From a virus, in the IMG/VR virus record IMGVR_UViG_3300024346_000022, positions 1-64,000 of that record: a stretch of 64,000 bases of DNA; one strand, written 5' to 3'. Below are positions 20,921 to 61,823 of this stretch, in pieces. A program made the translations under genes and the position numbers. The notes below the pieces were generated by a model, which searched no databases, was not told the DNA's origin, and saw only the letters and a list, made by a program, of their open reading frames with translations. The first letter of the stretch is position 1, and every line of letters begins with the position of its first letter.

Positions 20921-23443
20921 TTACCTCAATGCTAGAATTAATGGTGTAACTTCTGCTTGTATTGCCTTACTGAAATCTCTTCCCCTAATTGTAGATGTTG
21001 GTTGATTGATTTGGAAACCTTCACCTATATCAAAATTACCTTTTTGGTCGGTACTTGTAAATGGAATTTGTGCTCCGTCTAAAGCAACAATTTCGTTTGC
21101 CTTAATTGGAACACCCCCAGTAAAGGGTGTTGCTGTATTTATATTAGTACCAGTTCCAATATATTCAAAAGAGTGTGAACTTGTTAAAATTCTACTGATT
21201 CTTCTAAAAGAAACTTGTTCTGTACCAAATAATTGATATGGAATAAATTCGGTAAATGTAACTGTTGTAATACCCGCAGAATTTTCCGTTGCGGAATCAA
21301 CAGCATAATAAATGGGTCTTGTAACCACTTCTGCGGTTGCTTTACCTGGTCTTGGTTCACCATCAATAAAAACTTCTAGGTTTTGTGTTGCCAGATAATT
21401 TCTTCCACTATTTACAACATCAATAGCAGTGATTGCACCGGTAACTGGATCGACGGTTGGACTTAACTCTGCAATAATACCCTGTGGTCCTTTTGGTTGT
21501 TGAGAATTATCAGAACTGTCACGAATAATAACAGTTGGTGGGGCGGCAGCACTGTAATCACTTCCGCCATATGAAACTCTAACTTCCTGAACCTCAACCA
21601 TAGGTTGTTGAATTATACCACTACCAACAGCATCTGGATAATTACTTAAGTTTATCTTGAAGAATAGTGTTTGACCGTCATAAGGTCTTCTTGTGTTTCC
21701 TATACCCGTAAAAGTAACAATATCACTACCAGCATCAACACCCGTTTGTCCTCTATTTGGAGGATAAGTACCTACAGTTCCTGTAAATTCTGTGGAACCA
21801 ATTCCAACTGCTTTTAAACCATAATTACCAAAAGAAGAGTTGGAGTTTGTTAAATCACAAGATCCTCCAGTATCACAATAAATTCCAATATCACAGTTAA
21901 TTGTGAAAATAGAAACTAACTGAGCGTAACCATTATTTGTAATTGAAACGCCAATACCATTTTCATTATATTGAGTGAATGAATCACACACCATACACTT
22001 CAAATCATTACCTGGTGTAGAGGCAGTGGCATGATTTCCATTTATTTTCATACCAATACTGCCCGTCATAAAGTTGGTACAGTTTCTAATATATGGACTT
22101 CTCCATCTATTAGTCGGTCCTTCATTCGCTGGTCCTGGAGCAATATACCCAGAAACGGCATAATCTGCAGGATTAGTTGGAGGGAATGCTACGGCACCAC
22201 AACCGGTATGTGCAATAGAAACACTCGATCCTGCAAAGTTTATGTTTTCAATCAGACATCCTCTTCTGACATGGAAAACATCTTTAGTAACATTAAGAGG
22301 TCTAATCGTAACAAGTCTCAAATCTTGCCCCGTGACTGTAACATCAGTACGAAGACCAATTGGATTATTTTCGGTATAAACTCCTGGTCGAATCACAATT
22401 GTATCTCCAGGTTCTGCTACTGCCGCAGCACCACCTACAGTTGATTTTGCGTCACCTTCAAGTAAACCAGTGTTCGTGTCATTACCATCTTTAGTGACCC
22501 AAATTGTATTTTGAGTCTCAACTCCAGCAGGTCTCCAAGATACTCCAGTTCCTACAGATGATAATCTATAGTCAAATTTACCAGTAGCAGTACTGTTGTT
22601 TACATCTATTAAAGATGAATTAAGTTCAACTGTCCCATCAAAAACAGAAGTTCCATCAACATCTAAATTTGCTTGAACATTTACTATATTAGTTGCAGAA
22701 TCAAGATTTAAGTTTCCAGTTGCAGTATCAATAGTATTATCATTAGCACCATCAGCAATTCTAATTTCTCCAATATGTGCATCAGAGAATGGCAATGCGG
22801 AAGTTCCCAAATACGCCCCCTCATCAGAGTCTGGTACAATACCAGTATCAACGGTTACTAATCCTCCCAATCTTGAAGTTAAATCAACATCTAAAGTTGC
22901 ATTTAAGGTAGTAGCACCATCTACATTTAGAGTTGTATCTAAATCTGTGGCACCTTTTACATTAAGTGTTGTTTGTAATGTAGTAGCACCATCTACATTT
23001 AGAGTATCGTTGAGAGTAGTTGCACCATCAACATCTAGAGTAGAATCAAATTCAACTTCATCTACAACATGGAGATCTCCATTTACATCTAATTTAAATG
23101 CTGGAATAGTAAGTCCAATACCAACAAATCCCAAAGAAGTAACAACAAGATCTTGTCCAGTACCTCCGACTTGAAATCTCTCAAAAACTACCGAAGTTCC
23201 TATACCAACATTAGTCAGTCTATAAATTGATGCAGAACTACCAGCACCAGCAAATCCCCATAAGTCTTGTGTACGAATGTCCGCAATCCAATTTGGATTA
23301 TCAGAATTAACGACAGGTACTAAAGTATCTGTTCCTACACCGAGACTATTTGTCTGAACAAAATTTATAGCTGCAAATGCTTGTGCTAAATCATCTGTTG
23401 GTATGAATACTCCCTGGTCCTGAACATAAAAATAATTTGGCAT
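20921..23443 (-). CDS. Virion structural protein with beta-helix-like domain (paralogue of 57383-61387)
   Basis: WVTKDGNDTNTG...PGVYTENNP; DSFTQYN...NNGYAQLVS.FTI...CDLTNSNSSFGNYGL; FTSTDQ.GNF.IG.G; late promoter upstream. Confidence 0.75.
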   Translation of the reverse strand: MPNYFYVQDQGVFIPTDDLAQAFAAINFVQTNSLGVGTDTLVPVVNSDNPNWIADIRTQDLWGFAGAGSSASIYRLTNVGIGTSVVFERFQVGGTGQDLVVTSLGFVGIGLTIPAFKLDVNGDLHVVDEVEFDSTLDVDGATTLNDTLNVDGATTLQTTLNVKGATDLDTTLNVDGATTLNATLDVDLTSRLGGLVTVDTGIVPDSDEGAYLGTSALPFSDAHIGEIRIADGANDNTIDTATGNLNLDSATNIVNVQANLDVDGTSVFDGTVELNSSLIDVNNSTATGKFDYRLSSVGTGVSWRPAGVETQNTIWVTKDGNDTNTGLLEGDAKSTVGGAAAVAEPGDTIVIRPGVYTENNPIGLRTDVTVTGQDLRLVTIRPLNVTKDVFHVRRGCLIENINFAGSSVSIAHTGCGAVAFPPTNPADYAVSGYIAPGPANEGPTNRWRSPYIRNCTNFMTGSIGMKINGNHATASTPGNDLKCMVCDSFTQYNENGIGVSITNNGYAQLVSIFTINCDIGIYCDTGGSCDLTNSNSSFGNYGLKAVGIGSTEFTGTVGTYPPNRGQTGVDAGSDIVTFTGIGNTRRPYDGQTLFFKINLSNYPDAVGSGIIQQPMVEVQEVRVSYGGSDYSAAAPPTVIIRDSSDNSQQPKGPQGIIAELSPTVDPVTGAITAIDVVNSGRNYLATQNLEVFIDGEPRPGKATAEVVTRPIYYAVDSATENSAGITTVTFTEFIPYQLFGTEQVSFRRISRILTSSHSFEYIGTGTNINTATPFTGGVPIKANEIVALDGAQIPFTSTDQKGNFDIGEGFQINQPTSTIRGRDFSKAIQAEVTPLILALR

Positions 23444-23483: not shown

Positions 23484-23918
23484 TTATTCCGGATAAATTG
23501 GAACACCTTCATCCAAAATGAAAATTCCATCCGAATATGTGGAAAGTCCTACGATTGTACCAAATCCGCAGCATGGAGAAGCACCATCGACAATAAGAGG
23601 GATCCAACGAATTCCATTAACATCTCGGGACAGTTGATATCCATTTCTTCCAGGAACATTTACCGAATCATAAATGTTTTCATCTATTTTAACACTTCCC
23701 GCAACATCCAATCTTTGTTGTGGTTGGGTAGTACCAATTCCAATCCTACCATTTACAATTATATTTTCTCTAACATCTAGATTGTCTAAAAATATATTTA
23801 ATAAATCTTCTGGTATCTTATATGTAATATCAAATTCTAAATCTTTCTCAGTTACAAACTCTATTTCATCAGAAACAAAATACTTTTTGGCGTAGGTGAA
23901 TGTACTAAATGCTGCCAT
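23484..23918 (-). CDS. Structural protein, hypothetical
   Basis: IGIGTTQP..LDV.G fibre-type motif. Confidence 0.6.
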   Translation of the reverse strand: MAAFSTFTYAKKYFVSDEIEFVTEKDLEFDITYKIPEDLLNIFLDNLDVRENIIVNGRIGIGTTQPQQRLDVAGSVKIDENIYDSVNVPGRNGYQLSRDVNGIRWIPLIVDGASPCCGFGTIVGLSTYSDGIFILDEGVPIYPE

Positions 23919-23921
23919 TTT

Positions 23922-24632: not shown

Positions 24633-24636
24633 ATAA

Positions 24637-30577: not shown

Positions 30578-30578
30578 C

Positions 30579-32300
30579 TTATGTCACCACATTATAATTT
30601 ACTTGTGAATAGAGCACATAGAAATTATCTGGATTTGATGCTGATATTGCCGGGACCTGATTTACTGAACCACCAGTGGGGGCGGCACCAGATCTTTGTT
30701 GGGCGGAAGATGCTATTCTTTTATAAACTACATTCGGTGCTGGTGCTGGTGCTGGACCAACATTAACCTGTGTGGAAACTCTATTGGTTTGTGCTGGTAA
30801 TGGTTTTATATTTACCTGACTTGGTTGTGATGAAACTTGATTACCTTCTTCTGGTGTTATATTAACTTCACCATATTGTGGTGCCTGAGTGAAATCAATT
30901 GAAGATGCCTGTTTCTCCAAATCAACCATTTGCTGATTGAATGACATATCAGAGGCAGGAGCAGAAGCAGCAACAGATGTAGTAGAAGGTGTAGCGGCAA
31001 AAGTTGTTGGTGGTTTTGTAGATGATGGTATTACTGGACTTTGTGGTTTTGCTGGTGAGGGTTTTGCTGATACAGAAGAAGTTGCTGCTGGTGTTTGGGG
31101 TTTTCCAAAAAATTTATCATATATGTCTTTACCAAATCCAGAACCAACACTATATCCAGCAATTCCTCCTGCAAAAGATCCTACAGGACCTAAAAGCCCA
31201 CCTACTGCGGCAGATGGAGCCGCTGCAATAACACCAGCCGCAGCTCCTGCAAGTGCCCTGCCAGGATCCTCTCCCATAGCAATATCTAATGCTGTTCCTA
31301 CAGTTCCTTGAATAAAAGGACCACCAATATTTCTTAATAACCCTCTGCCAAATCTACTGGCGGTAGAAAGTAATCCTCTTCCACCAGCGCCAGCATTTGG
31401 CGCTGCAGGTGCTGCAGGAACTACTGGCGTTGGTGGTGGTTTTTGTTTTCCAAGACCAAGCAAGGCTGCTCCGGCACCCTTTAAAAGATTTCCAAGTGCT
31501 CCAAAAAATCGACCGACAGTATTCTTAAGTAACCATCCACCAATCTTAAGAGATAATCTAGTAATAGTTGCTGCAATTGCAAAAAATCCACCATTCAATA
31601 AGAATAATGTTGCGGCACCAATTCCAAGAGCCTTTAGAACATTATCTCTAATTTCTATTAATTTTTTACCATTATCTTCTGATAGTGCTCGAAGAGTTTC
31701 AATTCCTTGATTTGTCAGCCATCCAAGTAACAGTGTTCCAAAGAACTGTGATAATCTACTTAAAATAGATTGTGTTTTTTCTGCGATTGCCTGAACCGGA
31801 GCAATTAATGCACTTTGTATTGCTCTTTCTAAAAGACTTTCTCTACCTGCTCTTAATCCTAATTCTGCTGCTCTTCTTTGTTCCTCGTTTTCTTGTTTTA
31901 TACGATTTTGTTCTAGAATACTATCATTAGTAATTGCTTTCGTAACATTATTTAACGAATTGTTAAAACCAGTAATTTCACCTCTTAAACTTCCAACGAG
32001 TTCTTGTACTCCGTTTATCGTCTGTGTCTGAATGAATATTACTTTATTTAAGTTGGCAACTTCAGAACTTAAGGTATTAACCTGACTCTGTACGGTAGTT
32101 ATTGATGTAGATTGAGACTTTACAATTGACAGAGTTTCTGGATCCGATTTCTTACTGATTGGAACAAGTGCTCCACCGCCACCAAAAATATTTGACGATA
32201 CTTGACTTTTTTTGAAGAGTGCCTTTCTTCTTTCCGCAGACAAATAGGACCCCGATATAGGATCCACTCCACTTTGAGCTACTTGTGCTAAATCAGCCAT
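30579..32300 (-). CDS. Tail/baseplate protein, tape-measure- or gp29-like
   Basis: Coiled-coil N-terminus and Gly/Ala-rich hydrophobic segments; lies just downstream of gp51. Confidence 0.5.
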   Translation of the reverse strand: MADLAQVAQSGVDPISGSYLSAERRKALFKKSQVSSNIFGGGGALVPISKKSDPETLSIVKSQSTSITTVQSQVNTLSSEVANLNKVIFIQTQTINGVQELVGSLRGEITGFNNSLNNVTKAITNDSILEQNRIKQENEEQRRAAELGLRAGRESLLERAIQSALIAPVQAIAEKTQSILSRLSQFFGTLLLGWLTNQGIETLRALSEDNGKKLIEIRDNVLKALGIGAATLFLLNGGFFAIAATITRLSLKIGGWLLKNTVGRFFGALGNLLKGAGAALLGLGKQKPPPTPVVPAAPAAPNAGAGGRGLLSTASRFGRGLLRNIGGPFIQGTVGTALDIAMGEDPGRALAGAAAGVIAAAPSAAVGGLLGPVGSFAGGIAGYSVGSGFGKDIYDKFFGKPQTPAATSSVSAKPSPAKPQSPVIPSSTKPPTTFAATPSTTSVAASAPASDMSFNQQMVDLEKQASSIDFTQAPQYGEVNITPEEGNQVSSQPSQVNIKPLPAQTNRVSTQVNVGPAPAPAPNVVYKRIASSAQQRSGAAPTGGSVNQVPAISASNPDNFYVLYSQVNYNVVT

Positions 32301-32466
32301 TTGCTTGATTCTTTAGGTTTTCTTCTTCAATATAATTTTGGAGTAAAGTTATATAAATTTCCCGTTCCCAAGGTATCATTTCCTCTAGTTCAGTCAAAGA
32401 GTATTTATGATGCTGAATTAATGCGAAAGTTGTCTTATAGTATGACGCAAGATCAGTATGCGCCAT
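32293..32466 (-). CDS. gp51: Baseplate hub assembly protein gp51
   Basis: Not in the ORF track. Reads MAHTDLASYYKTTFALIQHHKYSLTELEEMIPWEREIYITLLQNYIEEEN. Confidence 0.85.
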   Translation of the reverse strand: MAHTDLASYYKTTFALIQHHKYSLTELEEMIPWEREIYITLLQNYIEEENLKNQANG

Positions 32467-32468
32467 AC

Positions 32469-33188
32469 TCACACGAAAAAAGCCGATAATCCCTCCAATA
32501 CAACTTCACTTTCTACACCAGTCTTTGGATTTTTAATCTTGATTGTATGTGAAAGTTTAGGCATAGTCTCAAAGAACTTCTCAACTTCTTTAAATTGTTT
32601 AGAACTTAATTGTTCCACAAATTCTAATAGTTCTTTTTTAGTAGAATCCTTTGCCACCCAAGATTCTTCTTCTGAATAAATTTGATCGATACATGATATA
32701 ATTAAATCAAAAGTATCATCAACACTTACACTATCACCAGAATCAAAATTATTCTTAATAAATTCTGTCATAGATGGATATCTCATTCTCAAAGTCAGAG
32801 TATCATCCAATTTAATATCACGAGAATGTTTTGGATTCTCCTCAACATTAATTTCGTCCAAATTGATACTCATCGGAACCTGTGTCGTTTCATCATCAGG
32901 GCAGGTAATCAAAACATCTACAGTTTCTCCAACTGATTTACCTCTGATATTAAGAAACAAGTACTCAATATCAAATGTGGATAGGTCTTCTACTTTAATA
33001 CCTTTGCTTAAGATACAATTCGAGATTACAGTTTTAACAGCATTTGCGATTTGCTTGGAATCTTCGCTTTCCAGAGCAATAATTAGAATTTTTTCTTCTT
33101 TAACCAGAAAGGGTCTATATCTAATTTTCTTTTTTAATGATGGAATTTCTAGCTCGTAAATTGGCGTTGTAATACGGGGGAGCGGCAT
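32469..33188 (-). CDS. gp26: Baseplate hub subunit gp26
   Basis: MPLP...YELEIPS...YRPFLVKEEKILIIALES...FDIEYLFLNIRGKSVGE. Confidence 0.9.
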   Translation of the reverse strand: MPLPRITTPIYELEIPSLKKKIRYRPFLVKEEKILIIALESEDSKQIANAVKTVISNCILSKGIKVEDLSTFDIEYLFLNIRGKSVGETVDVLITCPDDETTQVPMSINLDEINVEENPKHSRDIKLDDTLTLRMRYPSMTEFIKNNFDSGDSVSVDDTFDLIISCIDQIYSEEESWVAKDSTKKELLEFVEQLSSKQFKEVEKFFETMPKLSHTIKIKNPKTGVESEVVLEGLSAFFV

Positions 33189-33220
33189 TTTATTTAATTA
33201 TAAAGTTCAGATAAACTTAT

Positions 33221-33979
33221 TTATGTTACAATTCTTGGATTTACATTTCCTGGAGTAAGAATAACACCCCTTACACCACTTTCTCCAAGTGTGGAACCGG
33301 GTCTATAAACAACTCTTTGAGTATTAGATTCGCCAGTATCACTATTGAAAAGTTTATTATTGTCATTATTTTGTATAAAATCCAAACTTAATGTTCTGCC
33401 ACAAACATATCGTTCATAATTAAATGTTGCATTTACTTTTAATACATCAGAACCACTATACTGAACTGGTATAGAACTCAAAGAAAGTGGAAAAAGTCCA
33501 AAGAAATTATATTCAATTTCTGCGTTATAATCTCGGTCAAATTTAATAATTTTAGTCATATTGCTCTTATAGTCCTTTGGATATCTCATCCTAAAATAGT
33601 AACCGTCAACGGATGGATTCTCATTAGACCCACTGGAAATAAATTCCATCCAGTGCTCTATAAATTTTAAAGTTTTATAATCACTATCCACATAAAATTC
33701 TAGACCGATTTCTGTAAAGATTCTACGATGAGCGACTCTTTCATTTACCCCGGTATAATTATTTGTAACCTCGGCAGTTGCCAAAGAAGTTCCGGGTAGT
33801 GATGCCGAAAAACAAAGTAATCCGGCTTCATTACTAATAAATAATGGGTCAACACCTCTTATCGCAAGATGCGATAAAAGTGGACCGGGCAGACCACCAA
33901 ACACAACCTGAAAGTGTGAGCTCTGGGCGAGATTCGTAAAGAGTGGTTTAAAGTCGGATATTCTGCGGATACTAGGCAC
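33221..33979 (-). CDS. Tail tube-like protein (gp54/gp19 family)
   Basis: LLCFSASLPG, FYVD..Y....FIEHWM, YNF.G.FP.S.S...Y....LKV..TF.Y.RY. Confidence 0.65.
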   Translation of the reverse strand: MPSIRRISDFKPLFTNLAQSSHFQVVFGGLPGPLLSHLAIRGVDPLFISNEAGLLCFSASLPGTSLATAEVTNNYTGVNERVAHRRIFTEIGLEFYVDSDYKTLKFIEHWMEFISSGSNENPSVDGYYFRMRYPKDYKSNMTKIIKFDRDYNAEIEYNFFGLFPLSLSSIPVQYSGSDVLKVNATFNYERYVCGRTLSLDFIQNNDNNKLFNSDTGESNTQRVVYRPGSTLGESGVRGVILTPGNVNPRIVT

Positions 33980-34020
33980 TCTAAATACCTTTTATGAGTC
34001 TTAATAGTATAAGTATTTAG

Positions 34021-50597: not shown

Positions 50598-51299
50598 TCA
50601 TATACCGAAACGCCTACGAAGAGCGTTGAAGTTTTGTGTGACTTCTGTTGCGGTGAGTACTCTGTTGTATGCCTGAATAGTAGCGACTTTTGCTGCATAG
50701 TTGGCCGCCGCACCAGTAAACATCGTTCTAAATGATAATGTTGTATTAGAAAATGCCGTTGCACTTGTAGTTAAGGCATATCCACTGGAGTTAAATCGGT
50801 GTATAAAAGGAGTTCTTGTGGTTGGATTTGTACCAAAAGCAATATAAGACCATGATGTAGTAACATTTCCGGAGGTAACATCAACAGGTATGTTATTATC
50901 CTTAAAATAAAATGTTGTGCCTGCAGTTCCATATGCTCCTATCTCAATAAATGGATCTATTCTATTGAAAAAATAGTTCCATCCAGTACCTGTTTGTGGA
51001 ATTGTTTGTTGTAAAAACAAACACATAGTAAATCCGGTGTTAGTGGATAAATTCAAATCAGAATCTAGGTCTAAACGTTCATTAGTTCCATCAAAAAGCA
51101 AATGACCTCCATTGGCGCTGCTGTAAGTCGGTCCATTTATAAGAGTTCCATTATTCCTATTACCACTCAAATCAGTCCAGATGGTTCCCGAACCACGATA
51201 AGAATTTTGTTGTCCTGCATCCAGATTTAAGACAAGATCATTTGTAACAATTTTTGGATATGTGGTTGAAATAGCAAAACTTTTACTCAAAAAACTCAT
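50598..51299 (-). CDS. LamG/concanavalin A-like lectin domain protein
   Basis: LVLNLDAG...SY.GSG..W.DLSGN.NNGTL.NGPTY...FDG; YNRVLTA.EV.QNFNA.R.RFGI. Confidence 0.8.
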   Translation of the reverse strand: MSFLSKSFAISTTYPKIVTNDLVLNLDAGQQNSYRGSGTIWTDLSGNRNNGTLINGPTYSSANGGHLLFDGTNERLDLDSDLNLSTNTGFTMCLFLQQTIPQTGTGWNYFFNRIDPFIEIGAYGTAGTTFYFKDNNIPVDVTSGNVTTSWSYIAFGTNPTTRTPFIHRFNSSGYALTTSATAFSNTTLSFRTMFTGAAANYAAKVATIQAYNRVLTATEVTQNFNALRRRFGI

Positions 51300-54200
51300 T
51301 TGAAGTTACCATTCACAATACCAAGAACTTGATAATTTGCAGTAGTACTAGCAGAACCTATTGTGTTAATGCCAGTAAAGTTAAAAATATCATAAGAAGT
51401 TGTAGAAGCAGTTGAGACAACAGAACCAGGATATCTTACAGTTCTTGCAGTACCATTTAAATTTACTGTGGTACATGCATATCCAATTGAAGTTTGAATT
51501 GCAACAACTGTAAATGTAAGAACACTGTTATCAAAAGTACTATCAGTTGGAATACCAGTTACATTCAGTGTGATTGGTCCTGTTGGATTTGTACAAATAG
51601 CAATATTACCACCACCAATATTATAAACCAAACTTACAGTATTTCCGCTTACACGTATTGATTTTTCTGCAAGAGATTGGATACGAGTATCAGTTGCAGT
51701 GAAAGAACCAGCAACGGATACTGTTGTTGTTGGATTTGTGGTTCCAATACCAAGATTACCGGATGAAGGATTGAATACAAGTTTTGTAGAAGAAATATAA
51801 GAAGTTCTAGCAATTCCTGATGTGACAGAAAGAATTCCAACATACCAATTTGAATTTGTTGTGGTGTTATCAAATACCGTAACCCCCCCATCACTTGTAC
51901 CCTGTAGTCCTTGAGTACCCTGAAGTCCTTGAGTACCCTGAAGACCTTGAGTTCCTTGAACACCTTGATTACTTAGACCTTGAAGTCCTTGAGTACCCTG
52001 AAGTCCTTGAGTACCCTGAAGACCTTGAGTTCCTTGAACACCTTGATTACTTAGACCTTGAAGTCCTTGAGTACCCTGAAGACCTTGAGTACCCTGAAGA
52101 CCTTGAGTACCTTGAGTACCAGAACCTTGAAGTCCTTGAGTTCCCTGCAATCCTTGAGTACCTTGAAGTCCTTGAGTACCTTGAACACCTTGATTACTTA
52201 GACCTTGAAGTCCTTGAGTTCCCTGCAATCCTTGAGTACCTTGAAGTCCTTGAGTACCTTGAGTACCAGAACCCTGAAGTCCTTGAAGTCCTTGAACACC
52301 TTGAGTACCCTGAAGTCCTTGAGTACCTTGAACACCTTGATTACTTAGACCTTGAAGTCCTTGAGTTCCCTGCAATCCTTGAGTACCCTGAAGTCCTTGA
52401 GTACCTTGAGTACCAGAACCTTGAAGTCCCTGAAGTCCCTGCAATCCTTGAGTACCTTGAACACCTTGATTACTTAGACCTTGAAGTCCTTGAGTTCCCT
52501 GAAGACCTTGAGTTCCTTGTAGTCCTTGAAGTCCAGCAGCAAAAGGAGTAGTCCAAGAAACTCCAGCACCTGTTGATACTAAAACACTACCGGCAGCACC
52601 TACATTATTATTGATATCTCTCAAAGCACCATCAAGTTCTACCAATCCACCGAAAGTAGAAACACCGGTAATTCTTACATCTCCTTGAACGTGAAGTTTT
52701 GATGTTGGATTGGTTGTTCCCAATCCTATATTTCCACCATAAGGTCCAAGTTGTATCGTTCCATTCGCATCTACATCGATACTTGGAATACCAGAAACAT
52801 CATTAACAGAGAAGATAGAACCACTGGTGAGATTATTTGTAATACTGAATAACTGACCAGCAGAACCTTCCCAAGATAAGGTGCCTGAGTTTAGAGTATC
52901 ATAAGGAATTATATCAATTACTGTACCAATTCCAAGTGCTCCAGTAGAGGGATTGAATTGAAGTTTTGTTGAAGAAACCTGAGCAGTTTTGGCGATTCCT
53001 GATGTGACAGAAATAATTCCAACATACCAGTTTGAATTTGTTGTGGTGTCATCAAATACCACAAATCCACCATCACTTGCACCCTGAAGACCTTGAGTAC
53101 CTTGATTTCCTGTACCCTGGAGTCCTTGAGTACCTTGAGTACCTTGAGTTCCTTGAGTACCCTGATTTCCTGTACCCTGGAGTCCTTGAGTTCCTTGAGT
53201 TCCCTGTAATCCTTGAGTTCCTTGATTTCCTGTACCCTGGAGTCCTTGTGTTCCTTGAGTACCTTGAGTACCCTGATTTCCTGTACCCTGGAGTCCTTGA
53301 GTACCTTGAACACCCTGAAGAGCGGCATTCTGTATCGTTGCCTTTCCTACAACATTTCCAGTTACATCATAAAGAGCAATAAAATCACTACTTTGAGGGT
53401 CTGTAACAGTAGGTAATCCATTAATATCAAGATTTGTAGCAGTTCCATTAAATCTGGTTGCGGTAATTTGACTATCGGTAATATGAACTCCACCGACTGC
53501 CAAACGAACTCCATTAGGAACTTGAGTAGAACCAATACCAACACCATAATTGAATAACCAGGCATCAGTAGTACCGGCACCTAAAGTACCACCCTTAATC
53601 CACATAATTTGTTTATATGTGGAAGGAATACTATCAATACCAACAACATTAATATCAATTAATGGAGTACCTTCAGTAGATGCAATTGAAATACCACCGT
53701 GATTTGCCGTGGTATCCGTAGAAACATCCTGACCAAAGGAATTTGTTGTAAATCCCAATACAATATCTTTATCTTTTACTTGTAATTCATTAACAACAAG
53801 AAATGCTGTAGTACCACCAACAGTTATGTTTCCCGTAACATTTAGATTTGAATTAATATTTGTAGCACCATTAACTGTAAGACCCGTAAATGTGGGATTA
53901 TTAGTTAGGGTGATTGTTGCACCTACTCCAGATGATGTTGCAGTTAGATTTCCACTTACAAAGTTAATGGAATTAACATTACCTGGAGTTCCTACAACAG
54001 AACCTTCCTCACGAATTGTAATACCAGTAATTGCACCAGCAGAAGCAGCAGCAACCCAAGTAGGTGTAGCACCAACTCCATTTGATGCAAGAACATACCC
54101 AGGTGTACCATTTGCCAAAAATACAGTAGTATCAGATGCAGATTGATAAGGTATATTACCAATAACACCACCTTTTAGATTTGTGGCAATACCGGCATTA

Positions 54201-57028
54201 GAAACATAGTCGGCAATTGTGATAGTAGAAGCAGTACCAGATGCTGTTGCAGTTACATTCTGCCCTACAAAGTTAATGGAATTAACATTATCCGCAGTTC
54301 CTACAACAGAACCTTCCTCACGAATTGTAATACCACTAATTGCACCAGCAGAAGCAGCAGCAACCCAATCTACTCCAGAACCAGTTGATGCAAGGACTTG
54401 TCCGGGTGCTCCAGATTCATTATCCTTATCAAAGAGAGAACCACGAAGTCTAATACCACCATTTACATCTAAGTTTGTTGTTGGATTTGTGGTTCCAATA
54501 CCAACATAACCTTCTGGAGTTATTCTTAATCTCTCACTAATAACTGCACCATCTAAAGTATAAAATCTCAAAGAACCTTGGTAATCAGTTCCCACATAAT
54601 CGTCCCAACCTTCTATAAGAGCGACTGGTTGTGCAAGTTCTGATGCATTTCCTCCAACTCTAAAATCAATTGCTCCTGCTTTTCTTCCGCCAGATACTTT
54701 AAATTGACTATTTGTAAGTCTTACTGTTGCAATACCAGTACCACCAGAAATTTCAAATGTTGCTGCAGGATTAGTAGCACCAATACCAAGATTACCAGAA
54801 ACATAAGCACCACCAGTAACTTGAAGTCTTTGTGATGCGGTTCCTGTTGCTGATGTAGAGTTTATAACAATATTTCCAGAACTATCAACTCTCAATCTTT
54901 CTGCAGAAGCATTTACATCATAAACCCGAAGACCATCAAAACCAGCAGCAATTGAACCCGAACCAACTCTAAAGTTGTCTCCACCTGCTCCAGTTGCAGT
55001 AAAACCAATTTCCGCAATAGATGTTCCTTGAATATGAACACCATAGATTGGATTATTGGTTCCAATACCAACATTACCACTTGCAGTAACAACAAAAGGA
55101 GTTTCATCAGGATTTGTAGAATCTTCAATTACAAGAGCATTACCAGTTCCAAGTTGAGTGATACGAACCATATCACTTGATGTAGTTCCAGAGAACAATC
55201 CAGCAATAGAAGTTGCTGTTGGAACTACATTTAAAGTTGCTCCTGGATTTGTGGTTCCAATACCAACTCTTTGATTTGTTGCGTCATAAACAAAATTAGT
55301 TGCACCGGCAGATACATTATTATTGTTAAAAATAACTTGAGAGTTAGAACCTGCTATTGGTCCTACAAGACCTTGAGTACCCTGAAGACCTTGAGTTCCT
55401 TGAGTTCCTTGAGTACCCTGATTTCCTGTACCCTGAAGACCTTGAGTTCCTTGAGTTCCTTGGAGTCCTTGAGTACCTTGATTTCCTGTACCCTGGAGTC
55501 CTTGAGTTCCCTGTAATCCTTGAGTTCCTTGATTTCCTGTACCCTGAAGACCTTGTGTTCCTTGAGTTCCTTGAGTTCCTTGAGTTCCTTGAGTACCCTG
55601 ATTTCCTGTACCCTGAAGACCTTGTGTTCCCTGAAGACCTTGAGTACCCTGATTTCCTGTACCCTGAAGACCTTGAGTTCCTTGAGTTCCTTGGAGTCCT
55701 TGAGTACCCTGATTTCCTGTACCCTGAAGACCTTGAGTACCCTGAAGACCTTGTGTACCTTGAGTACCCTGATTTCCTGTACCTTGGAGTCCTTGTGTTC
55801 CTTGGAGTCCTTGGAGTCCTTGAGTACCTTGATTTCCTGTACCTTGGAGTCCTTGTGTTCCTTGAGTTCCCTGAAGACCTTGAGTACCTTGATTTCCTGT
55901 GCCCTGAAGACCTTGTGTTCCTTGAGTTCCTTGGAGTCCTTGAGTACCCTGATTTCCTGTACCCTGAAGACCTTGTGTTCCTTGAGTACCTTGTCTACCT
56001 TGAGTACCCTGATTTCCTGTACCCTGAAGACCTTGAGTTCCTTGAGTACCTTGTCTACCTTGGAGTCCTTGAGTTCCCTGAAGACCTTGCAACGCAGCAT
56101 TTTGAATTGTTGCCTTTCCTACAACTGTTCCACTTACATCATAAAGAGCAATAAAATCTCCACTCTGCGGATCGGCAATTAAAGGAAGACCATTAATATC
56201 AAGATTTGTAGCAGTTCCAATAAATCTGGTTGCGGTAATTTGACTATCGGTAATATGAACTCCACCAACTGCCAAACGAACTCCATTTGGTACTTGAGTG
56301 GAACCAATACCAATTGCATAATTACTTAACCAAGCGTCAGTTCCAAGTCCAACAAAAGAACCTGCCTTAAACCACATAAACTTCTTATATGTGGCAGGTA
56401 ATGTTTCAATACCAACAATATTGAGATTTACAAGAGGATTTCCTTCGGTGGAGGCAATCGCAATACCACCGTGATTTGCCGTATTATCTGTTGATATATC
56501 ATTCCCATTTCCATCTGTACGAACTCCAAGAACAATATCAGCATCAGCAACTTTAAATGTTTCTGTGAATAAAGTAGCGGAAGTACCACCAATCGTAATG
56601 TTTCCATTTACATTTAAGTTACGATTAACCTGAAGGTCTCTGGAAACTGTAACATCTTGTGGTGTTGTAAATTGATTTGGAATACTTAAGATTGGTGATG
56701 AACCTTCTCCGGTTCCGGTCGTAACCGTAATTTGATTTGCAGTTCCTGTGATGTTCTTAACATAATCACCAAAGGTATCAGTTCCAAGACCAACTGAATT
56801 TACAGTAACACTTGATGCTGTTGTTGCAGTTCCTGTTAAGTTTCCAATAAATGTGGTTGCGGTTACAACACCAGTAAAGTTTCCATCACCAACTACGGTA
56901 AGTTTTGATGTTGCATTTGTGGTTCCGATTCCAACTTTGCCTACAGTTTGTATAACAGTTCTATCTTCACTATAAGAAGATAAACCTACTTTGAGTTCTC
57001 TTTGCCTGCCGCTGACGTACTTATCCAT
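51296..57028 (-). CDS. Long collagen-like tail fibre protein (module 2)
   Basis: Three G-T-Q/G-L-Q tracts, VGIGTTNP repeats and duplicated internal modules; N-terminus paralogous to 17253-20240. Confidence 0.82.
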   Translation of the reverse strand: MDKYVSGRQRELKVGLSSYSEDRTVIQTVGKVGIGTTNATSKLTVVGDGNFTGVVTATTFIGNLTGTATTASSVTVNSVGLGTDTFGDYVKNITGTANQITVTTGTGEGSSPILSIPNQFTTPQDVTVSRDLQVNRNLNVNGNITIGGTSATLFTETFKVADADIVLGVRTDGNGNDISTDNTANHGGIAIASTEGNPLVNLNIVGIETLPATYKKFMWFKAGSFVGLGTDAWLSNYAIGIGSTQVPNGVRLAVGGVHITDSQITATRFIGTATNLDINGLPLIADPQSGDFIALYDVSGTVVGKATIQNAALQGLQGTQGLQGRQGTQGTQGLQGTGNQGTQGRQGTQGTQGLQGTGNQGTQGLQGTQGTQGLQGTGNQGTQGLQGTQGTQGLQGTGNQGTQGLQGLQGTQGLQGTGNQGTQGTQGLQGTQGLQGTGNQGTQGLQGTQGTQGLQGTGNQGTQGLQGTQGLQGTGNQGTQGTQGTQGTQGTQGLQGTGNQGTQGLQGTQGLQGTGNQGTQGLQGTQGTQGLQGTGNQGTQGTQGTQGLQGTQGLVGPIAGSNSQVIFNNNNVSAGATNFVYDATNQRVGIGTTNPGATLNVVPTATSIAGLFSGTTSSDMVRITQLGTGNALVIEDSTNPDETPFVVTASGNVGIGTNNPIYGVHIQGTSIAEIGFTATGAGGDNFRVGSGSIAAGFDGLRVYDVNASAERLRVDSSGNIVINSTSATGTASQRLQVTGGAYVSGNLGIGATNPAATFEISGGTGIATVRLTNSQFKVSGGRKAGAIDFRVGGNASELAQPVALIEGWDDYVGTDYQGSLRFYTLDGAVISERLRITPEGYVGIGTTNPTTNLDVNGGIRLRGSLFDKDNESGAPGQVLASTGSGVDWVAAASAGAISGITIREEGSVVGTADNVNSINFVGQNVTATASGTASTITIADYVSNAGIATNLKGGVIGNIPYQSASDTTVFLANGTPGYVLASNGVGATPTWVAAASAGAITGITIREEGSVVGTPGNVNSINFVSGNLTATSSGVGATITLTNNPTFTGLTVNGATNINSNLNVTGNITVGGTTAFLVVNELQVKDKDIVLGFTTNSFGQDVSTDTTANHGGISIASTEGTPLIDINVVGIDSIPSTYKQIMWIKGGTLGAGTTDAWLFNYGVGIGSTQVPNGVRLAVGGVHITDSQITATRFNGTATNLDINGLPTVTDPQSSDFIALYDVTGNVVGKATIQNAALQGVQGTQGLQGTGNQGTQGTQGTQGLQGTGNQGTQGLQGTQGTQGLQGTGNQGTQGTQGTQGTQGLQGTGNQGTQGLQGASDGGFVVFDDTTTNSNWYVGIISVTSGIAKTAQVSSTKLQFNPSTGALGIGTVIDIIPYDTLNSGTLSWEGSAGQLFSITNNLTSGSIFSVNDVSGIPSIDVDANGTIQLGPYGGNIGLGTTNPTSKLHVQGDVRITGVSTFGGLVELDGALRDINNNVGAAGSVLVSTGAGVSWTTPFAAGLQGLQGTQGLQGTQGLQGLSNQGVQGTQGLQGLQGLQGSGTQGTQGLQGTQGLQGTQGLQGLSNQGVQGTQGLQGTQGVQGLQGLQGSGTQGTQGLQGTQGLQGTQGLQGLSNQGVQGTQGLQGTQGLQGTQGLQGSGTQGTQGLQGTQGLQGTQGLQGLSNQGVQGTQGLQGTQGLQGTQGLQGLSNQGVQGTQGLQGTQGLQGTQGLQGTSDGGVTVFDNTTTNSNWYVGILSVTSGIARTSYISSTKLVFNPSSGNLGIGTTNPTTTVSVAGSFTATDTRIQSLAEKSIRVSGNTVSLVYNIGGGNIAICTNPTGPITLNVTGIPTDSTFDNSVLTFTVVAIQTSIGYACTTVNLNGTARTVRYPGSVVSTASTTSYDIFNFTGINTIGSASTTANYQVLGIVNGNFK
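51898..52532 (-). repeat. Collagen-like tract (GLSNQGVQGTQGLQ units)
   Basis: 9-bp tandem units. Confidence 0.95.
53080..53320 (-). repeat. Collagen-like tract (GTGNQGTQGLQ units)
   Basis: 9-bp tandem units. Confidence 0.95.
55370..56090 (-). repeat. Collagen-like tract (GTGNQGTQGLQ units)
   Basis: 9-bp tandem units. Confidence 0.95.
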
Positions 57029-57031
57029 TTG

Positions 57032-57379
57032 CTAGTTGAGAGTTTCTAAGATACTTGCTATGAACTTAATATTAGTATTACTACTTGCAGAAAATCTAAG
57101 AACATCACTTGATTCTAGAACTAATTTTCCCGACAACAAATTTGCAGTATCATTTCCAGAGATAGGATATGACAAAATAATTTCAGTCGTAACTGCAATT
57201 CCAGTTCTTTTATTAGTTCTTTGATGTGCGAATGAAACTGTTTGAGTTTGTGTCCCAATGTTTGCTGCCTGTGCTAAAAGTACAACTCCAGTATATCCAA
57301 CTGGAGATGTATAAATGCCAACATTATTAGTACTGCCAACAGCAGTTATCGTCTTGAATACATTAAGTGCTAATGCCAT
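57032..57379 (-). CDS. Small virion structural protein
   Basis: Paralogue of 20243-20917, in the same relative position. Confidence 0.7.
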   Translation of the reverse strand: MALALNVFKTITAVGSTNNVGIYTSPVGYTGVVLLAQAANIGTQTQTVSFAHQRTNKRTGIAVTTEIILSYPISGNDTANLLSGKLVLESSDVLRFSASSNTNIKFIASILETLN

Positions 57380-57382
57380 TAT

Positions 57383-60300
57383 TTAATCTCCTCCTAGTGC
57401 TAGAATAAATGGTGTGATGGTAGAAAATAAACTCTTTGAATAAAATGTACCAGAAATAGTACCAGCCTGCTGATCAATTACAACGCCATCACCAATTCTA
57501 AAGTTTCCTGATTGGTCGGTACTTGTAAATACAACTAGTCCACCATTACGGGCATCAGTTTCATTTTCCTGAATAGGAACACCACCAGTTGCAGGAAGAG
57601 CAGTTGCAATTTCAGTACCAGAACCAATATATTCTAGTGAATGACCTGTTGCCAAAACACGACTCTGTTTGAAAAATGGAACCAGTGTTCCTATTCCAAC
57701 GTCATAAGGAACATTATCATTTATCGTGATCGTACAAATACCAGCAGAAATTGGCGTAGAACTTAATATTGAATAATAAGTTGGAACCATTATAGGTATC
57801 GCTACTGCTGTATTTATTCCAACTTCAGGACCGGTTAATGTAACAGTTGGAGTATAAGTATATCCTCTACCACTAGAAACCATATCAATTGAAACCACCA
57901 CTCCATCTTTAACTTCGGCAACTGCCTGTGCCGCAACTCCAAAATTAGTTTCTGGATCAGATATATCAATTTCCGGAGAGATAAAATATCCAGATCCACC
58001 ATTACTCACTAATATCTTTTCTACTGTATAATAAAGTTTACTAAAATATACAACCTGACCATCAAATGGTCTTATAACATTAATTTTTGCCGTGCCTGTA
58101 TTGGGAACATAAGTATGCGGTAATGTAGAAACTCCAACATTCGCAGTAAACACGGTGCTTGCCCTTGATGCAGTAGTTGGAATACTAGAAGTATTTCCTG
58201 ATGCAATTGATGTAGTAAGAATTCCTACAAGGTTGTCAATAGTGTTCTTGACATTTGAACAGGAATCTTCATCCTGATTAGAACCGGTAAGAGGGTCTAT
58301 CTGTAATGTTAAATCTTGGTAGTTCAGTAAATTATTAATTGCCTTTTTTGAATAATCTCTAACAGCATGGAATGCCGTAATTGACTCGGTTACTTCTCCA
58401 ACTAATCCATTAGAAAGCGGATTTCCATTTATATCAAAATAAGATTCGGTTGCAATAATAATATTATTATTCGTAAATTCCTCTAAATCATCCGCAATAG
58501 CATCAACTACATATCCAATATCTCTACGACACTTATTTTGACCCGTTACAAATATTCCGGGATTTATATTAATTGAATTTAGTACTGTTAAATTGCCACT
58601 ACTAATTGCTTGGATGGAGATACCAACAAGAGTATCAATTGCATCCCGAACATTTGTGCAAGAATTAGGATTCGTATTTGAAGATATTCCAGAACTTGGA
58701 GTTGGATCAGCAGTAAGAGTTAAATCCTTTCTATTCAATTGATTTGTAATTGCTTTTTTGGCATATTCTCTTGCAGAAGCAAATGCATAAACAGACTCCG
58801 ATTCTTCACCCAAAAGAGAAGTTGTAGCAGATCCAACATTATCAAAATAAAACTTAGTAAAGGCAATAGAATATGAATTTCCACCAGTAAATATATCAGT
58901 AGAAATTGCATCAACAAAGTATCCCAAATCTCTGGCACATTTGTTTGTTGTTGAAATACCTAGATTTTCATTAAATGTTAATAATGAACCAGTTGTTCCA
59001 AGACCGATAACGGTGGTCACAATTCCAACAAGATTGTCAATATTTGATTGGACATCGGCACAAGAATTTGGATTACCAGATTGTAAAACAAGTAAAGAAG
59101 TTCCTATTCCACCATAAGATGCTGGTCCAGAACTAATTCCAAGATTTTTAAAATTCAATTGATTTGTGATAGCCTTTTTCATCAAATCTCTAGACGCATT
59201 AAAGGCAGTTACAGATTCTACAGTTTCTCCGACTAACCCATTAGAAATTGGATTTCCTGAGTTATCAAAATATTGAAGAGTAAAATCTCTAGAATACTTA
59301 TTACCACCAGTAAATACATCAGTAGAAATGGCATCAATAAGATACCCAAGATCTCTCGCACACTTATATCCGCCAGGGGAACTTGTGGAACCAATACCAA
59401 CACTTAAATTAAAATATCCAAAATTTGTATTTGGTAAAGAAGAGGTATTTCCTGAACCAATTACCGTGGTTACAATTCCAACAAGATTATCAATATTCGT
59501 TCTAACATTGGCACAGGAACTTGGGTTTGTGTTCGATCCAGTTAATGGATCTGCAGTAATAGTTAAATCACTATAAGCAGCACCAACTAAAGTATTGGTG
59601 ATTGCACTCTTCATTAATTGCCTTGCTTCAACAAATGCATAATTTGATGCAACCTCCTCACCCTGAAGACCATTTGTAATTGGATTTCCAGCACTATCAA
59701 AATATTTTAAGGTAAATTGGCGAGAATAATTATTTCCACCAGTTAAAATGTCTGTTGAAATTGCATCTATAAAAAATCCAAGATCTCTTTTACATTTTTC
59801 CTCAGAAGTTGCAATTCCCGGATATACATTATAAGTATTCGTCCAGGCAATGCTTACAACTACATCCTTATTTTTTTGAATTAATCTATAAGAATCAAAA
59901 TATCTTGACCTAGAATTAGTCTGAATGTCTCCAGGGAAATAGAAATCTGAGTGTGCTATTGCAACTGATCCTAAAGATTTATCAACGATTTCTTGTTTAT
60001 TAATTTGAATTAATCTCGATGCATCATAATATCTAGATCTAGCATTAGTTTCTGGTTCATCCGGAAAATAAAAATCTGACGGAAATCCAACAGCAATTGA
60101 TGCAAGTGATTTATCTACAATTTCTTGCTTGTTCTGTTGAATTAATCTATATGAATCATAGAATCTAGAATACTGTGTTGTCTGAGGATCACCGGGAAAA
60201 TAAAAATCAGGATGATTGAGGGCAATTGCCGCAAGTGATTTATCTTGTATTTCTGTTCTATTTGCACGAATTGAATTTGCCGCATCAACATATCTTCCCG

Positions 60301-61387
60301 GAGCAACAGTTTTTGTCTCAAATACATATCCCTTATTACCACTTGGATATGTAACAATTCCAGGACCAGAAGGGCAACTAAACTGAAGTCCGGAAAGAGA
60401 AATACCCATACCAACCGTGAATTTATGAGCACTATTGGTATAGGCAGTTAAAAGTCCTGTCCTATTATCATAAAGAGCATTTACTATATTTAAAGTTGGT
60501 ACATTTAAATCAAGAACAAAAGTATCCGAATTTTCTGCCGCAGCACTTGTGACTATTCCTGTATATTTTAAGGGTCCTATACCATCGGAAATTAGTCCAT
60601 AGTTACCAAAGGAAGAGTTTGAGTTTGTAAGATCACAAGCAGCACCACTTCCACAAAAAACTGCAATATCACTACAAATTGTGAAGAGAGAAACTAACTG
60701 TGCATATCCCTCATTTGTAATTGAGATTCCAATACCACCTTGATTATATTGAGTATAAGAGTCAAGAACCATACTCTTAGTTGGTCCAATTGCTTTGGAA
60801 CCATCAATTCTCATTCCAATACTTCCAGGAATAAAATTGGTTCCGTTCTGTACATAAGGTGATTGATCAAAATATCCTATTTGATCAGGATTAAAGGAGA
60901 AGATTGCCCTACCAGGATTCATCGTTCCGGTATAGGACATTTCTGCAACATAAACCCCATTTGCCACATAGAACAAATCTTGATCTGGATTCTGTGGTGA
61001 TACTGATACTTCTCTTAGACTATCACCGACGATTGAGACTTGTTCTGGAATGGTTAGAGGATTGTTCTCTATATAAGATCCAGCACTAACTTTAATAACT
61101 GATCCTGTTGTTGCCTGTGTGAGTGCTGCTCCAATTGTTCTTTTGGCGTCTCCGAGTTTGAGTCCGGTGTTTGTGTCGTTTCCGTCTTTTGTGACATATA
61201 AAATATTTGTGACTGTTGTTCCGGCACCGATGCGAATAATGTCAGTTCCTATTCCAGGACGATCCCTTCTACCCGTAAGTTCACCATCATAGGTATTATA
61301 CGCTAGTTCGCCACTTAAGAGTTGATTGATTGTGGGTCTTTTGCCAGGAACAGCAGACCTTTTAATCCTAATTGGAGTTCCGTCCAT
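57383..61387 (-). CDS. Virion structural protein with beta-helix-like domain and four phycobiliprotein-like repeats
   Basis: IRIKRS.V.GK.P...GELA.N..DG fibre-type N-terminus; paralogous to 20921-23443; insert with 4x KCxRD(L/I)G(Y/F)..DAI..D and 4x SC..V...ID.LVGI; TATAAATA late promoter at ~61439-61446. Confidence 0.75.
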   Translation of the reverse strand: MDGTPIRIKRSAVPGKRPTINQLLSGELAYNTYDGELTGRRDRPGIGTDIIRIGAGTTVTNILYVTKDGNDTNTGLKLGDAKRTIGAALTQATTGSVIKVSAGSYIENNPLTIPEQVSIVGDSLREVSVSPQNPDQDLFYVANGVYVAEMSYTGTMNPGRAIFSFNPDQIGYFDQSPYVQNGTNFIPGSIGMRIDGSKAIGPTKSMVLDSYTQYNQGGIGISITNEGYAQLVSLFTICSDIAVFCGSGAACDLTNSNSSFGNYGLISDGIGPLKYTGIVTSAAAENSDTFVLDLNVPTLNIVNALYDNRTGLLTAYTNSAHKFTVGMGISLSGLQFSCPSGPGIVTYPSGNKGYVFETKTVAPGRYVDAANSIRANRTEIQDKSLAAIALNHPDFYFPGDPQTTQYSRFYDSYRLIQQNKQEIVDKSLASIAVGFPSDFYFPDEPETNARSRYYDASRLIQINKQEIVDKSLGSVAIAHSDFYFPGDIQTNSRSRYFDSYRLIQKNKDVVVSIAWTNTYNVYPGIATSEEKCKRDLGFFIDAISTDILTGGNNYSRQFTLKYFDSAGNPITNGLQGEEVASNYAFVEARQLMKSAITNTLVGAAYSDLTITADPLTGSNTNPSSCANVRTNIDNLVGIVTTVIGSGNTSSLPNTNFGYFNLSVGIGSTSSPGGYKCARDLGYLIDAISTDVFTGGNKYSRDFTLQYFDNSGNPISNGLVGETVESVTAFNASRDLMKKAITNQLNFKNLGISSGPASYGGIGTSLLVLQSGNPNSCADVQSNIDNLVGIVTTVIGLGTTGSLLTFNENLGISTTNKCARDLGYFVDAISTDIFTGGNSYSIAFTKFYFDNVGSATTSLLGEESESVYAFASAREYAKKAITNQLNRKDLTLTADPTPSSGISSNTNPNSCTNVRDAIDTLVGISIQAISSGNLTVLNSININPGIFVTGQNKCRRDIGYVVDAIADDLEEFTNNNIIIATESYFDINGNPLSNGLVGEVTESITAFHAVRDYSKKAINNLLNYQDLTLQIDPLTGSNQDEDSCSNVKNTIDNLVGILTTSIASGNTSSIPTTASRASTVFTANVGVSTLPHTYVPNTGTAKINVIRPFDGQVVYFSKLYYTVEKILVSNGGSGYFISPEIDISDPETNFGVAAQAVAEVKDGVVVSIDMVSSGRGYTYTPTVTLTGPEVGINTAVAIPIMVPTYYSILSSTPISAGICTITINDNVPYDVGIGTLVPFFKQSRVLATGHSLEYIGSGTEIATALPATGGVPIQENETDARNGGLVVFTSTDQSGNFRIGDGVVIDQQAGTISGTFYSKSLFSTITPFILALGGD

Positions 61388-61451: not shown

Positions 61452-61823
61452 TTATGACGCATTATTTTTTCTTGGGCGATAAGAATAAAGATTTGTGGGT
61501 GATGGAGGTTTCATCCAATTTTCTATTTTATCAAATCTTTCTTCACTATAAAAATCTTGCTGGACATACCACAGTTTCCAGTGCTCGTGCCCTTTGGATT
61601 GATTACAAGAATGGCAAGAGCATACTACATTCGTGGTAGTATCTAATCCACCTTTTGATTGAGGAAGTATGTGGTCTATTGTAAGATTATCTTCAGACTC
61701 ACAATAGGCACACTTATGATTCCAACTCTCTTTGATATCTTTTCTCCATATTCGTTTAGCATCCCCAGAACTTGTCGTATAAAGATTAAACAGGTACTCT
61801 TTAGGCGAATGGAGAGGTCCCAT
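61452..61823 (-). CDS. HNH endonuclease
   Basis: W.HKCAYC...LTIDHILPQSKGG.D...NVVCSCHSCNQSKG. Confidence 0.88.
   Translation of the reverse strand: MGPLHSPKEYLFNLYTTSSGDAKRIWRKDIKESWNHKCAYCESEDNLTIDHILPQSKGGLDTTTNVVCSCHSCNQSKGHEHWKLWYVQQDFYSEERFDKIENWMKPPSPTNLYSYRPRKNNAS

Follow-up and report, generated by a model that had tools for sequence, protein, structure and literature searches.

The window analysed here is a stretch of 64,000 nucleotides of viral DNA (positions 1 to 64,000 of the IMG/VR virus record IMGVR_UViG_3300024346_000022), and all coordinates refer to it. It harbours an open reading frame (ORF) at 57383-61387(-), open throughout with no stop, which encodes a tail-fibre-like protein of 1334 aa carrying a large insert. 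The insert contains an array of domains with the fold of phycobiliproteins (PBPs), which are the light-harvesting antenna proteins of cyanobacteria, red algae and cryptophytes. We regard these domains, with very high confidence, as genuine diverged PBP homologues. The complete reading, a PBP-derived array of four domains built into a tail-fibre-like virion protein and with predicted bilin attachment, has in our judgement an even chance of being correct.

Phycobiliprotein-like repeats in a fibre protein

The ORF 57383-61387(-) matches the PHROG tail-fibre profiles phrog_4527 (9.9e-190) and phrog_17885 (2.7e-180) through its N- and C-terminal parts, and is located within a fibre gene cassette. 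The window also encodes a paralogue, 20921-23443(-) (840 aa), and both proteins are classed as tail-fibre proteins by the PHROG profiles. In the BLASTP comparison, aa 46-279 share 45% identity with aa 297-557 of the paralogue, and the C-terminal aa 1077-1331 share 37% identity with its aa 550-839. Since these flanks align to contiguous parts of the paralogue, aa 280-1076 represent an insert of about 800 aa. The repeat array occupies aa 364-1063 of this insert (about 700 aa), with four helix hairpins (A1 to A4) followed by four units of about 120 aa (U1 to U4). An annotation made previously from the sequence alone (hereafter the initial annotation) had described an insert that the paralogue lacks, in agreement with this alignment.

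A regular-expression scan recovered every motif of the initial annotation, in the same number and position. The motif KC[KAR]RD[LI]G[FY] occurs four times, at aa 531, 675, 816 and 952, with Cys532, Cys676, Cys817 and Cys953 encoded at 59792-94, 59360-62, 58937-39 and 58529-31, respectively; the first three copies only are followed by TGGN. Four copies of SCxNV contain Cys625, Cys776, Cys910 and Cys1043 (nt 59513-15, 59060-62, 58658-60 and 58259-61). The four upstream A repeats, of the form R[YF]xD, start at aa 365, 408, 452 and 495. The U units share 49-65% identity with each other over about 120 aa, and a hidden Markov model (HMM) of the unit matches each of them at about 1e-60 and no other ORF of the window. 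Therefore, the repeats are not a product of chance.

Eighty related loci were gathered from viral contigs, from which an alignment of 51 diverse units was obtained, each with about 36 residues of upstream sequence. At a mean column identity of 34%, this alignment shows no variation at two Cys, at the Asp of CxRD, at a further Asp and at a Tyr. With the 51-unit phage alignment as input and without templates, AlphaFold2 (AF2) predicted an all-helical model for aa 490-650 (A4+U1), with a predicted local distance difference test (pLDDT) of 93.6 and a predicted template modelling score (pTM) of 0.89. All top matches of this model found by Foldseek in the PDB were PBP beta chains, with template modelling (TM) scores of 0.6-0.7. 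Among 48,161 PDB representative chains, the best structural match was the phycoerythrin beta chain of Phormidium (5aqd_M; Z 16.8, root-mean-square deviation 2.1 Å, 141 aligned residues) and the top eight were all PBPs, with allophycocyanin, the bilin domain of ApcE and other PBPs at Z 13-14.8. Photocobilin, RsbR and haem globin sensors ranked below the PBPs (Z 8.4-11.5), and none of these families is the closest neighbour. The model thus shows the PBP-type globin fold with helices A, B, E, F', G and H, for which Z reached 17.6 with a model of the whole insert. This is in agreement with the proposal of the initial annotation that A4 and the first E-H unit form one PBP-like domain.

The sequence of the phage domain is only 11-19% identical to PBPs. 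Megablast of the gene against 50,697 phage records and phmmer of the whole protein against the PDB sequences gave no match. The Pfam family PF00502 was detected in the whole protein with 23.1 bits against a cut-off of 22.2 (E 8e-5), a marginal pass that sums over several repeats. A six-frame search of the phage's own contig with PF00502 gave no match at E <= 0.001, so the pass depends on the summed score of the whole protein. About half of 120 listed homologues have a precomputed PF00502 match. The search of all PDB sequences with the 51-unit profile retrieved 48 sequences at E <= 10, all of them PBPs, with a best E of 1.1e-4. In the profile alignment, skCkRDigy...gg of the phage units falls on SKC84ARDIGYY...GG of C-phycocyanin alpha, which places the phage Cys, Arg and Asp on Cys84, Arg86 and Asp87. 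The equivalence of KCxRD with the Cys84 motif, proposed in the initial annotation, is thus recovered by alignment.

The second Cys had been assigned initially to a beta155-type site. Residue 290 of the whole-insert model aligns with the C-terminal residue of beta chains that are 172 or 177 aa long; insert Cys271 (Cys625), 19 residues upstream, accordingly falls on beta-153 or beta-158, a placement by end-point arithmetic and not by residue-level alignment, which is compatible with the assignment. The structural alignments of the single domain begin at about residue 29 of the PBP chains. The PBP relationship is visible only by profiles and folds. As the sequence evidence, which is independent of the fold, agrees with the fold evidence, we interpret the units as diverged PBP homologues.

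Probable split and nested arrangement of the array

The four U units differ in what precedes them. A/B helices stand directly before U1 only, in the form of A4, and U2 to U4 are each preceded by the last helix of the prior unit and a non-helical linker of about 30 aa. To describe this arrangement across the family, A and U elements were counted in 266 homologous proteins and the 80 loci, many of which are orthologues and hence do not provide independent counts. Most blocks (171 of 222) contain as many A as U elements, namely (4,4) 82 times, (3,3) 33 times, (2,2) 31 times, (1,1) 14 times, (5,5) eight times and (6,6) three times. One locus has seven of each, and the equality of A and U numbers holds for each n from 1 to 7. 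Some proteins possess two modules in series, for example AAUhUh-AAUhUh. The counts show an A^nU^n rule.

A4 is fused to U1, and for this reason the simplest reading of the rule is a nested pairing, A3 with U2, A2 with U3 and A1 with U4. We consider such a split, nested architecture probable. Each domain would then be divided between an upstream hairpin (A1-A4) contributing helices A and B and a downstream unit (U1-U4) contributing helices E to H. With nested pairing, the array would fold back like a ladder and the two ends of the insert would meet at the entry into the host domain, a proximity that is needed for insertion into another domain. The four upstream repeats had been listed in the initial annotation, and they are present as given there; their proposed nested role as the A/B helices of all four domains had been overlooked.

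The AF2 model of the whole insert (742 aa, with 33 orthologues) reached a pLDDT of 82.1 and a pTM of 0.81, which over so many domains suggests a defined overall arrangement. Nested pairing was also sought in the structural-alignment ranges of this model, which gave no reading of it, as every best alignment lay on the contiguous A4+U1 domain. The co-fold of A1 (insert 6-44) with U4 (588-712) scored 0.65, compared with 0.00 for the best control; a mark of 0.65 is reached by 58 of 80 solved complexes and by two of 110 mismatched pairs. The co-fold runs agree in at least 93% of the contacts, the partner pLDDT is at least 75, and the contacts lie on helices E and G of U4, which is the site of the A/B helices in a globin. 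The A1-U4 pairing is thus supported by a model only. Two points count against it: the pass may stem from likeness to solved PBP structures, and the co-fold cannot separate A1 from its close cousins A2-A4.

In several alignments of the whole-insert model, the aligned region does not stop at A4+U1 but includes the second helix of A3 (insert 109-124, 59954-60000(-)), which falls on PBP residues 3-16, the region of the X/Y helices. The packing of neighbouring nested domains may thus somewhat resemble that of alpha-beta partners.

A further class of giant proteins has up to about 35 complete domains arranged in simple tandem, and every domain there possesses an A/B-type helix of its own. As a means of extending a repeat array within another domain, nested split domains following the A^nU^n rule would be unusual.

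Putative bilin-site residues, lyase genes and light-dependent adsorption

Among 1,971 units in the 266 proteins, the Cys84-type Cys is conserved in 98%, the Arg in 95% and the Asp in 99%, and all eight Cys of the array are invariant in 33 orthologues. In PBP structures, Asp87 binds the pyrrole nitrogens and Arg86 a propionate. Since exactly the Cys84, Arg86 and Asp87 residues are kept, the conservation suggests that a tetrapyrrole site has been retained. From these residues we predict covalently bound bilin on the virion protein, and we give its presence and its absence about equal weight. The up to eight bilins and the light sensor proposed in the initial annotation would both depend on such attachment. 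Two further residues are near-invariant across the 1,971 units, an Asp at Cys+14 (98%; aa 546) and the Tyr of xYFD (99%; aa 562), both within 59438-59920(-); we know of no conserved counterpart of them in PBP sequences. Units with CxDD or CKTD are frequent in 6,000-7,000-aa open frames of Syn9, Syn19, Syn33, S-SM1, S-SSM5, P-SSM7 and P-RSM4.

The initial annotation had named an intradomain disulfide as a competing account of the Cys pairs. In the giant tandem arrays, most units contain exactly one Cys, that of CxRD (the protein P0132, for instance, has 22 CxRD motifs with one Cys per interval), and the second Cys is far less conserved across the family. An intradomain disulfide is therefore not the general reason for the conservation of the Cys84-type Cys. 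This result applies to the family, and the Cys pairs of this particular protein lie outside its scope.

The same residues have to be weighed against a structural explanation without pigment. A captured fragment of a host PBP could have been reused as a rigid, extendable fibre spacer and multiplied by nested or tandem duplication, with the Cys, Asp and Tyr serving folding, inter-chain contacts or redox stability. We hold this to be a serious alternative, somewhat short of an even chance. It would account for domains present in up to about 35 copies in giant fibre proteins, like the usual shaft repeats, and for a copy number that is free to vary between phages from one to seven nested pairs; the invariant Cys+14 Asp and Tyr, which are not known to have a PBP counterpart, would reflect constraints of the domain's own. 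Units without Cys in P-SSM4, the frequent loss of Arg86 in marine units, and three genomes and this contig with the domain and no phage lyase also fit a spacer. However, a spacer has no evident need for a bilin-linking Cys kept in 98% and a pyrrole-binding Asp kept in 99% of units that are on average about 34% identical. The Cys is usually alone in its unit, so an intradomain disulfide cannot account for it, and a spacer leaves unexplained why the domain is strictly confined to cyanophages and why it is associated with CpeT, as described below.

The tblastn search with the insert alone matched 317 of the 50,697 phage records; the names of all 317 read Synechococcus phage, Prochlorococcus phage, Cyanophage or, in a single case, 'Marine'. 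At this sensitivity, no match belonged to a phage of a non-phototroph, a distribution on which the initial annotation had made its proposal depend. A profile search found PBP-like units in 1,320 cluster representatives.

CpeT-like genes were identified with PF06206 together with a Syn9 CpeT-like query, in two samples of isolate genomes. The first sample comprised the 16 genomes of Sullivan et al. 2010 (PMC3037559), 13 of which have the domain, the exceptions being P-SSM2, S-SM2 and S-SSM7. CpeT-like genes were present in exactly the same 13 genomes. The second sample, which is not random, consisted of ten genomes chosen among the matches to this fibre family: S-SCSM1 has both domain and CpeT-like gene, B3, S-SKS1 and DSL-LC03 have the domain only, and six have neither. 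Taken together, 14 of the 26 genomes have domain and CpeT, three the domain only, none CpeT only, and nine neither (Fisher's exact test 7e-5, without phylogenetic correction). All CpeT-encoding genomes have the domain, but not the reverse. A candidate partner of another type, the S-type lyase PF09367, was rejected, as it was found in none of the 26 isolate genomes and not in the phage's own contig.

The gene cpeT lies 1.4 kb (S-PM2) and 0.7 kb (Syn1) upstream of a giant unit-bearing 'short tail fiber' gene on the same strand. The order in S-PM2 (162500-178500) and Syn1 (18500-34000), on one strand, is T4-GC 730, cpeT, small ORFs, a 2OG-Fe(II) oxygenase gene, the giant 'short tail fiber' gene (T4-GC 734) and gp12, with the oxygenase gene located between cpeT and the fibre gene in both phages. 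In the S-PM2 record (NC_006820.1), 16 tRNA genes with one shared locus tag have coordinates inside the coding sequence of the giant fibre, which looks like a record error. The lyase link of the initial annotation finds support in the 14 CpeT-encoding genomes and in these two neighbourhoods; it is not visible in the present contig, which shows no lyase gene, or in B3, which has no cpeT.

Under the reading with attached pigment, the insert would consist of four domains descended from host PBPs, each keeping a working Cys84-type bilin site (Cys, Arg and Asp) and, in this protein, probably a beta-153/155-type Cys too. In the infected cell, host bilins would become covalently bound, either by autocatalysis or through host lyases, a task that the phage's own T-type lyase CpeT may perform in many other cyanophages. 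This phage would need host lyases or self-attachment, since its contig has no lyase and B3 has no CpeT. Autocatalytic bilin attachment is known for ApcE. The same ability has been reported for the BBAGs of heterotrophic bacteria (PMC10151467). Virions released from the cell would then have pigmented fibres.

In the dark, P-SSM2 and P-SSP7 still adsorb, whereas P-HM1 and P-HM2 fail to do so (PMC6628666). For S-PM2, light-dependent adsorption is described as independent of host photosynthesis (Jia et al. 2010, as cited in PMC6628666). Light-sensitive tail fibres have been named as a possible cause of light-dependent adsorption (PMC6628666). We found the domain in P-HM1, P-HM2 and S-PM2, and not in P-SSM2 and P-SSP7. 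The match between domain and light-dependent adsorption is a lead and not a test. In the most speculative step of the proposal, the pigment would make the fibre light-responsive, and fibre domains with covalent bilins would act as a virion-borne photoreceptor that allows adsorption only in the light; we consider this step unlikely. If it were true, photoreceptor fibres would explain the light-dependent adsorption of S-PM2 and of P-HM1/P-HM2, CpeT, the orphan lyase of the phages, would have a substrate encoded by the phage itself, and some of the bilin synthesis genes of phages might also be accounted for.

The bilin site could also be functional in another way. The domains may bind tetrapyrroles non-covalently or transiently, for example as a sink for bilins from phycobilisome breakdown, or may engage host lyases or linker proteins, the pigment being unused by the virion. 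Related globin-like folds (photocobilin, RsbR and haem globin sensors; Z 9-11.5) bind varied ligands, and pebS and ho1 do not track the domain (PMC3037559), which would suit a role inside the cell or a different ligand. Nonetheless, the protein is a late fibre-type virion component with homologues annotated as virion structural, the conservation is centred on the covalent-attachment Cys, and nothing in this analysis indicates another ligand. We regard such a role as quite improbable.

Several observations weigh against a PBP-derived array with attached bilin. Single units score only 13-17.7 bits against PF00502, below the cut-off. The beta-155-type Cys is present in only 72% of the units with an aligned H helix, although in all four units of this protein. 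Arg86 is often replaced in marine giant fibres, where the Asp is kept (CxDD, CKTD). Three units detected in P-SSM4 (70200-76000) lack both Cys, though P-SSM4 has cpeT (and pcyA); degeneration of these copies is one possible account, and failure of the profile to detect further units is another. No cpeT, cpeS, ho1 or bilin-reductase gene was found on the 96.7-kb contig, an absence that says little because the contig is a fragment, 43% complete. B3, the nearest isolate to the phage of the window, has the domain without a CpeT-like gene. P-SSM2 and S-SSM7 carry pebS and ho1 (PMC3037559 Table 3), both without the domain here; bilin synthesis genes therefore do not depend on the domain. Such a dependence is thereby rejected, and the tie to phage bilin synthesis enzymes drawn in the initial annotation is not borne out by these two genomes, no such gene being found on the contig either. 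Finally, the link to the adsorption phenotype comprises five phages, with P-HM1 and P-HM2 classed in one species.

Fibre cassettes and comparison with known systems

The window contains two paralogous three-gene fibre cassettes, 17253-23443(-) and 51296-61387(-). The order in both is a beta-helix-type fibre protein, a phrog_1276 protein (224 and 115 aa, respectively) and a collagen-like tail-fibre protein (995 and 1910 aa). The PBP-like insert is present only in the second cassette; the elements of the insert-bearing gene and its paralogue are given in Table 1. The tblastn matches of the protein 57383-61387(-) fall in cyanophage genes annotated as tail fibre, short tail fibre or baseplate wedge, and its homologues carry annotation as virion structural proteins. 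A late virion protein context is reasonable on the basis of annotation and family names, given the PHROG tail-fibre classes and the same downstream phrog_1276 and collagen-like genes in both cassettes. Directly upstream of the insert-bearing gene, an ORF of 123 aa at 61452-61823(-) encodes an HNH endonuclease (phrog_2214, 4.6e-31), which may represent a mobile element beside a gene with a large acquired insert.

Table 1. Elements of the insert-bearing fibre gene and its paralogue in the window
Feature	Position	Strand	Basis
Whole ORF, tail-fibre-like virion protein with insert	57383..61387	-	PHROG profiles, tblastn
N-terminal part, aa 1-279, common to paralogue (VTKDGNDTNTG... region)	60551..61387	-	BLASTP
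Start of insert, aa 280-364, not phycobiliprotein-like, 5' of first A repeat	60296..60550	-	Outside paralogue alignment
A1 helix hairpin, aa 364-391, proposed A/B helices of outermost domain, proposed partner U4	60215..60298	-	AF2 insert helices 10-21, 23-37, pLDDT about 90; co-fold
A2 helix hairpin, aa 405-434, proposed partner U3	60086..60175	-	AF2 insert helices 51-64, 66-80; pairing inferred from A^nU^n counts
A3 helix hairpin, aa 449-478, proposed partner U2	59954..60043	-	AF2 insert helices 95-108, 110-124; pairing inferred from A^nU^n counts
A4 helix hairpin, aa 492-521, helices A/B of contiguous A4+U1 domain	59825..59914	-	AF2 aa 490-650
U1, aa 523-645, helices E, F', G, H; Cys532 (Cys84-type), Cys625 (putatively beta-153/155-type)	59453..59821	-	AF2, profile alignment
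U2, aa 674-796, Cys676 and Cys776	59000..59368	-	Unit HMM 2.7e-62; AF2 insert helices 320-442
U3, aa 816-930, Cys817 and Cys910	58598..58942	-	Unit HMM 2.5e-60; AF2 insert helices 462-576
U4, aa 948-1063, Cys953 and Cys1043	58199..58546	-	Unit HMM 2.9e-63; AF2 insert helices 594-709; co-fold with A1
C-terminal part, aa 1077-1334, common to paralogue	57383..58159	-	BLASTP, 37% identity
Paralogue, 840 aa, without insert	20921..23443	-	BLASTP; unit HMM finds nothing

The insert-bearing protein belongs to the fibre, short-fibre and baseplate giant proteins of T4-like cyanophages (PHROG 4527, 17885, 701 and 3442; T4-GC 734). The same units fill the 'short tail fiber' genes of S-PM2 and Syn1, and the 6,000-7,000-aa open frames of Syn9, Syn19, S-SM1 and others. 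Existing annotation of these giant proteins goes no further than structural or hypothetical, and the PBP relationship is not named in the records or the literature found. Our literature search, which mostly did not cover subscription journals, did not reveal any account of PBP-like domains among the structural proteins of phages, and two surveys of PBP-related globins do not mention such proteins (PMC10151467, PMC8717448).

The PBP fold would gain a new setting if a large family of domains derived from it occurs in virus particles. Pigment on the virus particle, and light sensing by it, are now open to test. Two questions also become testable, namely why some cyanophages need light to adsorb, independently of host photosynthesis, and why cpeT, a T-type bilin lyase gene, is found on its own in most T4-like cyanophages, with the remainder of the host operon missing. 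The role of cpeT in cyanophages has been described as 'unresolved' (PMC3037559).

Similar to the phage domain, BBAGs (PMC10151467), photoglobins (PMC8717448) and photocobilins (PDB 8j2w) are PBP-related globin domains outside light harvesting, and the self-attachment of bilin by BBAGs (PMC10151467) is a precedent for attachment without a lyase. However, these are cellular proteins of signalling or unknown function, whereas the phage domain is part of a virion protein, and photocobilin is structurally less similar to it (Z 11.5, compared with 16.8 for PBPs).

The closest known relatives are the PBP subunits themselves (PF00502: CpcA/B, CpeA/B, ApcA/B and the bilin domain of ApcE), among which C-phycocyanin alpha is nearest by sequence and the beta chains of phycoerythrin and phycocyanin are nearest by structure. 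Phage domain and PBP subunits have the same globin-type fold, from helix A to helix H, at Z 14-17.6, and the same K-C-x-R-D-[IL]-G-Y...GG motif on helix E at Cys84. The second Cys of the phage units, directly before helix H, probably corresponds to beta-153/155/158 of PBPs, as placed by end-point arithmetic. The X-Y helices, with which PBPs form alpha-beta pairs, do not appear to be part of the phage unit, and the phage units have the extra invariant Asp (Cys+14) and Tyr which PBPs, to our knowledge, lack. Unlike the free PBP subunits of about 170 aa, the phage domain is an insert in a virion fibre protein, where the domains are arranged in tandem, with up to about 35 per protein, or, as in the A^nU^n arrays, are probably split and nested.

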